A stretch of 64,000 nt of DNA from Escherichia phage SUT_E520. Within the stretch, counting starts at the first letter, position 1; every line of letters begins with the position of its first letter. The position numbers and the translations under genes are program-made. The stretch lies in sequence record OQ990040, one strand, 5' to 3'. Of the stretch, positions 32,806 through 34,574 are shown piece by piece. The notes under the pieces were generated by a model. That model did no database searches. It worked only from the letters and a program-made list of their open reading frames with translations, and was not told the DNA's origin.

Positions 32806-32834
32806 TTGACATTTTCGCTGGGGTAGTGTAAAGT
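32806..32834 (+). promoter_or_regulatory. sigma70-like promoter for plus-strand cassette (-35 TTGACA; -10 TAAAGT, weaker)
   Basis: TTGACA at 32806-32811; 17 bp downstream TAAAGT at 32829-32834. Confidence 0.4.
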
Positions 32835-32896
32835 ATATGTTATGGATGAGTGATCAAAGAGACACACATTTTCTATATACTAGGAGGTGTCAAAAT

Positions 32897-33886
32897 ATGA
32901 CAGAAGAAGTAGCTAAGAGTCCTGAGACCGTCGCTAGCGTTGCAGCAGAACTGCACCGTCACGAGGAATCAGATAAGAAAAAGTGGGAGAAGGTCAGAGC
33001 CTACGAAGAAAAACATCGTGAACACGATGATGAAGAAGAAGATGACGATGATGAACATTGTCATAAATATGGAAAACATAAAATGCAAGAACCAGTAAAC
33101 GTATTCACTAGTGGCTTCCCTGGCCTACTGGGTGGTTACCCAGCAAACGCAGGTGCTTTCGGTGGTGAAGGTATGGGACTATTCGGAGCTATCCTAATCG
33201 GTGCTCTATTAACCGGCGGATTCGGTGGTTTCGGTGGATTCGGTGGACGTGGTGTAGTTGGTGAAGGTACCGCAGTTGATGCAGTACTTCAGAACCAAGA
33301 TACCGCTAGTATTCTAGCAGCTATCAACACTACTCGTACAGAGGCTAACCAGGGTACTGGAGCTGTTTTAAGCGCAGTTAACAATGGTTTTAGCCAGACA
33401 ACCCAAAACCAGAGCCGTGATACTCAGTCTGTACTAACTACGATCTACGGTACAGGTGCTAATCTGTCTAATCAGATCTGCCAGGAAACTCGCAACGTTA
33501 TTCAGGGTCAGTTCGATCTTTCTCGCCAGATTGATCAATCTTTCGCAGCTAACCAGATAGCTCGTGCACAAGATAAGTTTGATTCTGCACAGATCGCTTT
33601 CCAGCAGACTTTACAAACTAATAACCAGTTTGCCGCTGTTCAGGCTCAGATGTGTGCTAACCAGAACTCTCTGGAACGTCAGATCGCTGAATGTTGCTGT
33701 GAACTTCAGACTGCGATCGCTGGTGTAACTACTGCGCGTATCCAGGATGAGTTAGACGCATGTCGCCTACGTGAAGCAATCGCTGCGGGTAGCGGTGCTA
33801 ACGGTCAGGTAATTAATCAAATCGCTTTAAGTCTTGGTGCTATCACTCAGACTCTGGCTGGTCTGCAGGCTAAACTGCCGGCTTAA
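32897..33886 (+). CDS. membrane protein: acidic/His-rich N-terminus, Gly-rich TM segment with GGFGGFGGFGG, Gln/Asn/Thr/Ala-rich C-domain
   Basis: ATG at 32897 with AGGAGG RBS (32883-32888); E. coli-like codon usage; opposite strand to surrounding genes. Confidence 0.55.
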   Translation: MTEEVAKSPETVASVAAELHRHEESDKKKWEKVRAYEEKHREHDDEEEDDDDEHCHKYGKHKMQEPVNVFTSGFPGLLGGYPANAGAFGGEGMGLFGAILIGALLTGGFGGFGGFGGRGVVGEGTAVDAVLQNQDTASILAAINTTRTEANQGTGAVLSAVNNGFSQTTQNQSRDTQSVLTTIYGTGANLSNQICQETRNVIQGQFDLSRQIDQSFAANQIARAQDKFDSAQIAFQQTLQTNNQFAAVQAQMCANQNSLERQIAECCCELQTAIAGVTTARIQDELDACRLREAIAAGSGANGQVINQIALSLGAITQTLAGLQAKLPA

Positions 33887-33907
33887 TATTAAGGGGAGGA
33901 GCCCATT

Positions 33908-34324
33908 ATGAGTAAATATGGTTTTGTAAATAACGGACTTAATCAAAGTATGGGCTCCCAGCAGCCCATTCCGGGTCTGGATAACCCCTACTTACAACAG
34001 TTGCAACAGCGTTTAGCAGAAGCGCAACAGATGCAGCAACAACTCCAGCAAAACCCTGGAAGTGTGAGTCCTATGCAAATGATGCAGCAAATGAGCGGGC
34101 AGTCGCAAATGCCTCAACAAATGCAGCAACAGGTGCCTCAGCAGCAAGTTCAGCAACAAACCCAACAACCGCAGGTTTCTGCGGAAGGACAGGCAGTACT
34201 AGCCCTTTTCGAAGACTTCGCAAAGACAGAGGATGGGAAACAGCTTGTATCACTTATGGGTAAGTTTAATAGCTTCTGCCAAAGCCAAGTTGCAAAAGCT
34301 CAAAATGGGGGTAGTAACTCCTAA
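33908..34324 (+). CDS. Gln-rich (poly-Q/M) low-complexity protein
   Basis: GGGAGG RBS; about 40 percent Gln in first 100 aa. Confidence 0.5.
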   Translation: MSKYGFVNNGLNQSMGSQQPIPGLDNPYLQQLQQRLAEAQQMQQQLQQNPGSVSPMQMMQQMSGQSQMPQQMQQQVPQQQVQQQTQQPQVSAEGQAVLALFEDFAKTEDGKQLVSLMGKFNSFCQSQVAKAQNGGSNS

Positions 34325-34333
34325 GGAGGAAAT

Positions 34334-34528
34334 ATGTGTTGCAGAAAATCTGTTTCGTGCTGCCCAGTGCCTGTAGCACGTTGTTGCTCTCCAGCAATGT
34401 TTACGCAAATACCGGCGTTCAATCCCTTTGCCTTTAAGCCTACTCTTATCCTGCCCCCTAGAGTAGATTTTCAGTCAAGATTGGCCTCCCGTATGGGTGG
34501 TTGCTGTACACCGAGAGTATGGTTCTAA
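34334..34528 (+). CDS. small Cys-rich protein (64 aa)
   Basis: AAGGAGG RBS; MCCRKSVSCCPVPVARCC and GGCC motifs. Confidence 0.45.
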   Translation: MCCRKSVSCCPVPVARCCSPAMFTQIPAFNPFAFKPTLILPPRVDFQSRLASRMGGCCTPRVWF

Positions 34529-34540
34529 ACCAAAAACAAA

Positions 34541-34574
34541 AGCCCCTGCCGAAAGGTAAGGGGCTTTTTCTTTT
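34541..34574 (+). terminator. rho-independent terminator for the plus-strand cassette
   Basis: hairpin gcccct-gccgaaaggta-aggggc followed by TTTTTCTTTT. Confidence 0.6.

Follow-up and report, generated by a model that had tools for sequence, protein, structure and literature searches.

A three-gene operon in the tRNA region of a T5-like phage recurs in other phage lineages and encodes a predicted membrane-associated protein with a conserved CCC motif

Introduction

Bacteriophage T5 is a classical model phage, but no role is known for most genes of the tRNA island that it can lose by deletion. Among them are three adjacent open reading frames (ORFs), T5.077, T5.078 and T5.079 (NC_005859), of which no mention was found in the searchable literature. 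Their counterparts in Escherichia phage SUT_E520 form a three-gene cassette, here called genes A, B and C, and this cassette is the subject of the present analysis. It was analysed within a 64,000-nucleotide stretch of sequence record OQ990040 (the window), which comes from a T5-like phage.

The GenBank records of the tRNA regions of T5, BF23 and phage 5 (NC_005859, AJ604530 and AJ604531, respectively) carry a promoter named P12, three ORFs and a terminator. The P12 label is used for both T5 and phage 5. The ORFs are entered as hypothetical products of 327, 138 and 64 amino acids (aa) in Salmonella phage 5 and BF23, and the terminator, ter1, is described in GenBank as an 'efficient bidirectional rho-independent terminator'. 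The cassette is a discrete promoter-to-terminator operon and a unit that is already present in this annotation. In T5 it occupies the same locus with the same synteny, from T5.076 to T5.080. The proteins of T5, phage 5 and BF23 share 81-98% identity with those of the window, and there is no structural difference between the cassettes. New beyond GenBank are the occurrence of the cassette in four phage lineages, the recognition of ORF C as a true gene, the deletion scars in cassette-minus relatives and the placement of T5.077 in a protein family, here termed the CCC-helix family.

Among described systems, phage morons resemble the cassette in having their own promoter and terminator, an orientation opposite to their neighbours, a patchy distribution in close relatives, occurrence on unrelated backbones and dispensability. 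Classical morons are expressed from a repressed prophage and have a deviant composition. Unlike these, the cassette has a third-position composition that matches its carrier, and three of its four carrier types are virulent. Morons are generally held to be scarce in virulent phages. Virulent phages do encode early membrane proteins that exclude competitors, such as Imm and Sp of T4 and Llp of T5. The cassette would be comparable to these, by functional analogy only, as an early, non-essential and small envelope-associated set. There is no sequence or fold similarity between them, and A has no lipobox, whereas Llp is a lipoprotein.

Organization of the cassette

In megablast searches, the region from 32700 to 34650 matches Escherichia phage T5_ev212 at 100% identity and many Tequintavirus records at 97-99%. 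All 21 tRNAs and nearly all adjacent ORFs of the neighbourhood are on the minus strand, and the three genes of the cassette are on the plus strand (Table 1). The promoter agrees with the consensus at 10 of 12 positions and is the sole such site within 32500-34750. An A/T-rich tract lies immediately 5' of it. The terminator hairpin has a folding energy of -22.9 kcal/mol (z = -3.99 relative to shuffled sequences).

The initial annotation, which was made from the sequence alone, described a self-contained plus-strand unit with its own TTGACA promoter, three strong ribosome binding sites and a factor-independent terminator. All of these elements are present. The product features that it listed are likewise found: an acidic, His-rich N-terminus, a GGFGGFGGFGG segment and a CCC motif in A, a Gln/Met-rich composition in B and a Cys-rich one, with 8 Cys among 64 residues, in C.

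Table 1. Coordinates of the cassette, its flanks and related features. Positions are those of the window unless a contig (L number) is given.
Feature	Coordinates	Strand	Remarks
Toprim-like ORF (T5.076)	32112-32681	-	flanks cassette
Sigma-70 promoter (P12)	32806-32834	+	-35 TTGACA at 32806-32811, 17-nt spacer, -10 TAAAGT at 32829-32834
Shine-Dalgarno AGGAGG, gene A	32882-32887	+	9 nt from ATG at 32897; ribosome binding site in AJ604531
Gene A (T5.077 homologue, PHROG 8119)	32897-33886	+	329 aa
Glycine-rich hydrophobic segment of A	33167-33250	+	residues 91-118, GMGLFGAILIGALLTGGFGGFGGFGGRG
Cys266-Cys267-Cys268 codons of gene A	33692-33700	+	best-conserved feature of the family
Shine-Dalgarno GGAGG, gene B	33895-33899	+	ahead of ATG at 33908
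Gene B (T5.078 homologue, PHROG 7894)	33908-34324	+	138 aa
Shine-Dalgarno AAGGAGG, gene C	34323-34329	+	overlaps stop codon of B; ATG at 34334
Gene C (T5.079 homologue)	34334-34528	+	64 aa
Intrinsic terminator ter1	34538-34574	+	G+C-rich hairpin, GAAA loop, A-run 5', U-run 3'
GCGC-bearing hairpin	34590-34620	-	AAGCCCGCGCTCTCGTAGGAAACGCGGGCTT; just 3' of ter1
SPFH/Band-7 ORF (T5.080)	34644-35591	-	flanks cassette
ORF with CxxC...CxxC motifs	31514-31699	-	61 aa
Rfam tRNA match	31921-31995	-	40.3 bits
Rfam tRNA match	36203-36274	-	35.5 bits
Plus-strand ORF in minus-strand early region	38389-39039	+	216 aa
Zn-ribbon ORF	L006 4756-4911 (N4-like contig)	-	homologous to the two below
Zn-ribbon ORF	L007 4746-4892	-	KPP23 ORF075
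Zn-ribbon ORF	L046 7744-7917 (lambdoid contig)	-	
Partner of a short-form relative of A	L016 7555-7863		~100-aa protein
Soluble CCC protein	L041 10001-11179		giant-virus-like contig
Soluble CCC protein	L043 10001-10792		giant-virus-like contig

Presence and loss among T5-like phages

Megablast searches with the cassette and short flanks match at least 388 phage records, only 217 of which cover 80% or more of this query. In tblastn searches, A and, separately, B are found in the same 222 records, which comprise 219 T5-like and 3 KPP23-like phages. Carriage among the T5-like records is therefore 219 of at least 388, or approximately 56%. Wild-type T5, Bas26, Bas27, Bas28 and Bas32 are among the cassette-positive phages. 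There is no Yersinia record among the tblastn matches to A, and phage phiR2-01, for which a proteome is available, is outside the A-carrying set.

In phages that do not carry the cassette, the Toprim and SPFH genes are adjacent. Clean gaps are present in EH4, Shivani, Gostya9, HildyBeyeler and SuperGirl, with three separate deletion end-points: one in EH4, one shared by Shivani and HildyBeyeler, and one in Gostya9. EH4 does not contain the equivalent of window positions 32674-34581. Shivani retains the promoter and 5' untranslated region up to 32867, and its sequence resumes at 34576. The Gostya9 junction contains the relic AARCCCNKSIWF*, in which codons 14-18 of ORF C are joined to the final eight codons of the same ORF. 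The junctions differ, with a promoter remnant in Shivani and an ORF C remnant in Gostya9, and they are independent deletion scars and not empty insertion sites. The polymorphism in T5-like phages is the result of repeated loss of a resident cassette rather than of recent insertion.

Laboratory phages also do without the cassette. The sequenced T5 st0 deletion mutant has lost the equivalent of window positions 29178-36964. This mutant is viable and lyses its host normally. A laboratory variant of Bas33 has lost approximately 10 kb spanning the cassette slot (PMC13250531 supplement), and Bas33 itself, the phage of the RNA-seq dataset, does not carry the cassette. Since the natural deletions, st0 and the Bas33 variant all do without it, the cassette is accessory, and it is dispensable for propagation on laboratory hosts.

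The synonymous divergence (dS) between the window and T5 is uneven over the operon, with values of 0.415 for A, 0.086 for B and 0.036 for C. The last six residues of C occur in two versions, CCTPRVWF and CCNKSIWF, the distribution of which does not follow overall relatedness. Together, the uneven dS and the alternative C tails point to recombination inside the cassette.

The trio in other phage lineages

Homologues of A with 36-43% identity are found on other phage backbones. An N4-like contig, which has a 3440-aa virion RNA polymerase gene, encodes in succession a 300-aa A, a 130-aa B and a 49-aa product that starts MCC. The trio lies beside the polymerase gene and three minus-strand tRNAs. 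In Pseudomonas phage KPP23, ORF074, ORF073 and ORF072 correspond to A, B and C, and a matching metagenomic contig has the same arrangement. In a lambdoid contig, the trio is antisense between the Q antiterminator gene and a tRNA-Arg on one side and the holin, lysozyme and Rz genes on the other. The Q-S interval of lambdoid phages is a classical moron slot. The N4-like and KPP23-type copies terminate in a hairpin and T-run, as judged by eye on unfolded sequence. The presence of the same trio in N4-like, KPP23 and lambdoid backbones indicates a portable moron. The cassette moves between phage lineages as a unit and lies in an accessory slot each time.

In the N4-like, KPP23-like and lambdoid copies, an ORF of 48-57 aa with a Zn-ribbon pattern (CxxCG...CPECG...C.P.CR.RK) and a basic tail lies directly upstream of the trio in divergent orientation. 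The three ORFs are homologous to one another and have no counterpart in the T5 window. The Zn-ribbon protein may serve as a regulator or as an additional, fourth component.

Codon usage and composition

Codon usage was scored as the per-codon log(P_E.coli/P_phage). The phage table was taken from the other 76 ORFs of the window, and the E. coli table is approximate. The score of gene A is -0.19, compared with a mean of -0.198 for the window ORFs (z = 0.06). Genes B and C score -0.06 and -0.15, and all three genes are closer to the phage than to E. coli. Phage-type codon choices are kept in the cassette (CTA 0.22, GCT 0.46 and GCG 0.11).

The G+C content of the cassette is 0.47, compared with 0.39 for the window. 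In gene A, the G+C contents of the first and second codon positions (GC1 and GC2) both have z values of approximately 1.9, and that of the third position (GC3) is 0.35, compared with 0.315 +/- 0.06 (z = 0.6). The increase in positions 1 and 2 is explained by the Gly/Ala/Gln-rich composition of the products. Among the codons for Asn, Tyr, His, Asp, Phe and Ile, the C-ending fraction is 0.58 in gene A, compared with 0.29 +/- 0.10 (z = 3), which is the highest value in the window. This shift is read as a mark of selection for high expression and not of foreign origin.

The GC3 of the cassette tracks that of the carrier genome. Its values are 0.35 for T5, 0.37 for the N4-like contig, 0.71 for KPP23 and 0.48 for the lambdoid contig. 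Because it follows each resident genome, the copies are long-resident in each lineage. In composition, the cassette does not behave as a moron: its codon usage is phage-like, its GC3 is near that of its neighbours and only the amino-acid-driven G+C content is raised.

The host-like codon usage claimed by the initial annotation is therefore not observed. The accompanying suggestion of a horizontally acquired moron stands in so far as the unit is self-contained, patchily distributed and present on four backbones. Recent acquisition from the host does not agree with the phage-like codons or with a GC3 that tracks the carriers. The same annotation had held that ordinary phage codon usage, with conservation and synteny in all T5-like phages, would speak against acquisition. 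The codons are those of an ordinary phage, and synteny holds wherever the cassette occurs, but some T5-like phages are without it.

Protein A

Over its full length (residues 1-329), A matches PHROG 8119 with E = 8.4e-205. It comprises a conserved N-terminal helix (VAAELxxHExxDKK), a variable, acidic and at times poly-His linker, a conserved EPVNVFTNG motif, a glycine-rich hydrophobic stretch and a domain of approximately 200 residues. Residues 1-90 have a net charge of -10 and contain 7 His, and some T5-like A proteins bear HHYHHHHHEH runs. The ratio of nonsynonymous to synonymous divergence (dN/dS) of A is 0.14-0.19 in comparisons with T5, Stitch and STG2.

The hydrophobic segment is the sole membrane-type stretch of the cassette, with a 19-residue Kyte-Doolittle mean of 1.72 at residues 94-112. 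In the alignment, this segment has Gly and Leu columns that do not vary. An acidic residue (Asp or Glu) precedes the hydrophobic core and a basic one (Arg or Lys) follows it across the 110 family members compared. The segment was also compared with the glycine-zipper pattern GxxxGxxxG, in which Gly recurs at i, i+4 and i+8. The conserved Gly residues of A (92, 94, 97, 102, 108, 111 and 113) are mostly spaced by 3, 5 or 6 positions, with no regular i+4 pattern, and the GGFGGFGG part has a period of 3. The positive-inside rule favours a cytoplasmic location for the C-terminal domain.

Residues 123-329 form a predicted helical domain that is rich in Gln, Asn, Thr and Ala (22% Gln + Asn). The AlphaFold model of residues 121-329, built from a 98-sequence alignment, has a predicted local distance difference test (pLDDT) score of 83.7. 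It contains an unbroken 108-residue helix at pLDDT >95 that includes Cys266-268, followed by two shorter helices. A first model of the full-length protein, built from 14 sequences, had a pLDDT of 47 and was not used. A helix of approximately 160 angstroms would imply self-association or a binding surface.

The CCC-helix family

The A profile was searched against 1.8 billion cluster representatives. A threshold of E <= 1e-3 gives 194 matches, of which 27 remain when it is lowered to E <= 1e-10. Mean identity within the family is 13-25%, and the CCC motif is the best-conserved feature. It is invariant in three family alignments. In the fourth, one Cys column is invariant and its two neighbours are nearly so. 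Most of 173 family proteins examined contain CCC, and a few members replace it. The one invariant feature in the alignments is the motif [QK][LI]AECCCE[LIV]K. The family is defined here by a long helix with [QK][LI][AS][ED]-CCC-[EDQS][LIVM]K, followed 15-25 residues on by (R)LRD or TRALIN. A of T5 agrees with this definition (RQIAECCCELQ ... ARIQDELDACRLRE), and with the T5-like profile, CCC-only proteins are recovered at E = 3e-11 to 5e-10, the matches spanning profile positions ~147-293.

Three forms are present in the family: long (T5 A-like), short and soluble. The short forms are proteins of 240-290 aa on low-G+C phage contigs. They consist of a hydrophobic segment and the CCC domain and have no N-terminal part. 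Related loci were searched with a 7-sequence subset of the 22-sequence alignment. In loci with a downstream region, short forms are always trailed by an unrelated protein of approximately 100 aa and never by B or C. This partner (M[AS]SP[IV]TVG...R.N[IV]RFQNT...) has no Pfam match. An endolysin gene lies 3-6 genes away in four of the short-form loci with gene maps that were examined. No short-form relative was found in cultured phages by tblastn.

The soluble forms are 170-640 aa long and contain CCC and ERNG-type repeats of approximately 11 residues, with no hydrophobic segment. Two of them are on contigs with giant-virus hallmarks and one is on a phage-like contig. The hallmark genes encode a D5-type primase-helicase, Bro-N/T5orf172, metacaspase, DNA polymerase X, XRN, SWIB and SNF2 proteins. 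An accessory protein of T5 thus shares a domain with proteins of Nucleocytoviricota-like genomes.

All homologues examined are on phage or giant-virus-like contigs. Scans of prokaryotic genomes were pattern-limited and covered one genome per species for 185,579 bacterial and archaeal species. Within this scope, the T5-type A profile has no relative and the short-form profile has a single match, on a 2-kb contig of a metagenome-assembled genome. With the prokaryotic scans near-empty, the family appears to be almost confined to viral contigs. PHROGs 8119, 9288 and 16490 are all labelled 'unknown'. The family proteins tested have no Pfam, NCBIfam or PADLOC match, and A, B, C and four relatives have no match in PADLOC-DB at E <= 0.1. 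By these profile searches, A belongs to a large family that has no Pfam model, the phage branch of which adds one glycine-rich hydrophobic segment.

Resemblances to known proteins

The initial annotation recognised none of the three products, and the searches found no characterised homologue. The sequence matches are confined to PHROGs of unknown function, and fold searches give no significant match. Sequence searches of the PDB give nothing significant for the T5-type or short-form profiles. The soluble CCC profile matches ApoA-IV at E = 6.5e-7 and ApoE at E = 6e-5. These scores accumulate over weak matches to repeats, none of which taken singly does better than E = 0.0037, so the apolipoprotein resemblance is treated as analogy and not homology. 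The same kind of comparison can be made with other helical repeat proteins of lipid surfaces, such as phasins. The hydrophobic periodicity of A is 3.65-3.75 residues, near 11/3, which points weakly toward apolipoprotein likeness. The T5-type A profile has no apolipoprotein match in the PDB, and A has no hit to PF01442 in Pfam. CCC-only relatives score 12.8-14.1 bits against PF01442, for which the cut-off is 90. In contrast to the exchangeable apolipoproteins (PF01442), with their class A Lys/Glu pattern, the helix faces of T5 A are occupied by Gln, Asn, Thr and Ala.

The lambda spanins Rz/Rz1 resemble A in layout, as long helices that contain conserved cysteines come after a hydrophobic segment. 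They differ in that A is outside the lysis cassette, within the tRNA island, has no lipoprotein partner and is preceded by an early-type promoter. T5 and Shivani each have their own separate holin, endolysin, i-spanin and o-spanin (PMC4342426). A spanin or other canonical lysis component was rejected on the basis of this separate lysis set, the lack of the cassette in Shivani and st0, and the presence of Rz in the lambdoid carrier. A class I fusion protein of the HA2 type was also rejected. The short-form profile matches HA2 at E = 0.03-0.8, which is not significant, and Foldseek finds no PDB match.

Proteins B and C

B matches PHROG 7894 over residues 1-138 with E = 1.1e-79. Of its 138 residues, 38 are Gln (28%) and 10 are Met. 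Two parts of B are conserved, an N-terminal helix (QLxxxLAxxQ) and a C-terminal motif (LFxxFxxTExGKQLxxxxxKFxxFCQ). The variable linker between them has a Gln/Met-rich composition in T5 and a Pro-rich one in the N4-like and lambdoid copies. The dN/dS of B is 0.09-0.27. Relatives of B are confined to phage groups that have long-form A, and both B and C occur only alongside it. Homologues of B are labelled 'cAMP-dependent protein kinase catalytic subunit' in PQ462667, PV016700, MK728825, OM386660 and other records. Since B has no kinase domain (no Pfam match), this label looks like a low-complexity artefact that has spread.

C matches no PHROG and is unannotated in many records. It is basic (net charge +7) and Pro-rich, and its 8 Cys residues form four Cys-Cys pairs in a sequence that starts MCCRKSVSCC. 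In the N4-like, KPP23 and lambdoid copies, C is kept after B, with lengths of 49, 60 and 91 aa, respectively. These proteins have the CC pairs (two to five across lineages) and a PxPVxRCC motif in common. C is nearly invariant among T5-like phages in which A is only 69% identical. Its dN/dS is 0.16 relative to STG2; values relative to closer relatives are dominated by the swap of the final six residues. Conservation across lineages and purifying selection identify C as a real gene. Neither B nor C has a hydrophobic segment, a signal peptide or other export signal, or a lipobox.

Proposed role and alternatives

It can be said with great confidence that the cassette is an accessory mobile operon with a membrane-associated CCC-helix protein. 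Confidence in any specific biological role is low. Superinfection exclusion, a toxin/immunity or bacteriocin-like set and a condensate-forming factor had been offered as possibilities by the initial annotation. The role proposed here, tentatively and as a possibility that falls short of probable, is that of an early inner-membrane accessory module giving a conditional advantage such as exclusion or counter-defence. A would be made early and abundantly by host RNA polymerase and would be attached to the cytoplasmic membrane via its glycine-rich segment. It would self-associate along its helix, with CCC acting as a thiol clasp by disulfide or metal, and B and C, which have no export signals, would bind it at the cytoplasmic side. 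The module would alter an inner-membrane property that is relevant only in some hosts or in competition. Candidate benefits are the exclusion of other phages and resistance to membrane-directed abortive defence, and no part in replication, morphogenesis or canonical lysis would fall to the cassette. Repeated loss in culture and the patchy distribution fit a conditional benefit.

Several points weigh against this proposal. Membrane insertion of A is deduced from a single hydrophobic stretch of borderline strength, and a cytoplasmic C-terminal domain would need export of the charged 90-residue N-terminus in the long form. The existence of soluble CCC relatives means that the core activity of the family need not be membrane-bound. 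A has no Pfam, NCBIfam or PADLOC match and no characterised homologue, and a fold search with the A model gives no significant match in the PDB (Foldseek) or BFVD. No expression or phenotype data on the cassette were found in the searchable literature.

A more specific version, which is considered unlikely, is that A is the phage branch of a tailed-phage and giant-virus family of lipid-surface-binding helical rods with a thiol CCC clasp, and that the cassette is a portable inner-membrane stabiliser, active for instance against superinfecting phages or against abortive-infection effectors that depolarise the membrane. If true, this would represent a previously unrecognised viral class of membrane-shaping or membrane-protecting proteins.

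The main alternative, also unlikely, is a cytoplasmic thiol or metal (Zn, Cu, Ni) module, in which the vicinal cysteines and the His/Asp/Glu-rich N-terminus of A bind or buffer metal or carry out thiol chemistry and the membrane segment merely localises the complex. Conservation of CCC in so divergent a family is consistent with such a function, as are the CC pairs of C in four lineages, the invariant FCQ of B, the His runs of some T5-like A proteins and the Zn-ribbon gene beside the cassette in three lineages. The thiols of B and C would remain reduced, as these proteins have no export signals. However, conservation of the His-rich stretch of A and of the Met-rich one of B does not extend beyond the T5-like phages, there is no similarity to metallochaperone, metallothionein or Mer/Ars/Cop families, and three cysteines in one helix are a poor chelation geometry for a monomer; CCC is, moreover, replaced in a few members. 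An envelope-crossing or lysis device has little to recommend it in terms of probability. A would then be a type II membrane protein with a disulfide-locked periplasmic helix, like an i-spanin or fusion stalk, that tunes lysis timing or outer-membrane disruption. The Rz-like layout of A, a segment that starts GLFGAI like the influenza HA2 fusion peptide, the weak HA2 matches of the short forms, the endolysin genes near short forms and the lambdoid copy that abuts a holin gene would all suit this device. Yet the HA2 matches are not significant (E >= 0.03), and T5 and Shivani have a full lysis set elsewhere, Shivani without the cassette. An Rz gene is already present on the lambdoid contig. C lacks both a signal peptide and a lipobox and B lacks an export signal; the promoter resembles the early sigma-70 type and not a late one, and T5 st0 lyses normally without the cassette.

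A similarly low probability is assigned to a toxin or bacteriocin-like set with C as a Cys-rich effector, A as a channel or immunity protein and B as a chaperone. C is small, basic, rich in Cys and Pro and more conserved than A among T5-like phages, and glycine-rich membrane segments are frequent in channel-forming oligomers. The idea is weakened by the absence from C of a leader peptide, a double-glycine site or a signal sequence; in addition, the cassette encodes no processing or export enzyme, short-form A relatives are paired with the unrelated ~100-aa protein instead of C, and no bacteriocin or toxin family is matched in Pfam, PHROGs or PADLOC. Slightly less probable still is a scaffold or condensate in which Gln-rich B and Gln/Asn-rich A build a phase-separated or fibrous membrane compartment early in infection. 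The Gln content of B, the Gln + Asn content of the A helical domain and the high-expression codon signature of A agree with it. It is weakened by the replacement of the Gln/Met stretch of B by Pro-rich linkers in the N4-like and lambdoid copies, where only the flanking ordered motifs are conserved, and the Gln/Asn-rich region of A is modelled as a confident long helix and not as disorder. Recently captured E. coli DNA is the least credible explanation and can be set aside almost entirely. The raised G+C content of the cassette speaks for it, but host-derived DNA was rejected by the codon likelihood test and the prokaryotic genome scans, and the homologues examined are all viral or giant-virus-like in context.

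With these results, three anonymous ORFs of T5 become a defined, transplantable unit common to N4-like, KPP23-like and lambdoid phages. Natural cassette-minus relatives and st0 serve as ready controls, and the CCC-helix family is a concrete target for protein-family curators and structural biologists. If the proposed early inner-membrane module does act on the membrane in conflicts between phages or between phage and defence, it would represent a new class of accessory genes in virulent phages.

Neighbouring features

In the T5 reference, a 'major DNA single-chain interruption' (consensus Pu-pGCGC) is annotated at 39746-39747 of 121,750 bp, or 32.6% of the genome, which places it between ter1 and the SPFH gene. 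Because an equivalent GCGC-bearing minus-strand hairpin is present in the window (Table 1), the end of the cassette adjoins this fixed nick site. The SPFH gene alone has 72-77% nucleotide identity to the ~175-kb Klebsiella, Enterobacter and Citrobacter phages (KP15 and relatives), and the same level of identity to ~90-kb Proteus and Cronobacter phages. Its homologues are labelled variously 'lipoprotein', 'band-7-like membrane protein' and 'putative ion transporter'. This membrane gene, widespread among phages, is retained where the cassette is lost.

Neither of the two matches to the Rfam tRNA model is reported by ARAGORN. The higher-scoring one is the equivalent of the tRNA-Ile2/Met (CAU) in the phage 5 and T5 annotations, and the other falls within a stretch annotated as stable 'RNAX' in phage 5. 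The BB1 and T5_ev records name the 61-aa ORF with CxxC motifs 'antitermination protein Q'. A Pfam search at E <= 0.01 gives no match to this ORF, and the name Q looks unsupported.

The 216-aa plus-strand ORF in the minus-strand early region has no Pfam match. Its GC3 of 0.54 is the highest of the ORFs listed and its fraction of C-ending pyrimidine codons (0.49) is the second highest. A plus-strand ORF, T5p083, is annotated in T5 st0 at what seems to be the corresponding position, downstream of a putative promoter on that strand. The 216-aa ORF may be a second moron-like unit.

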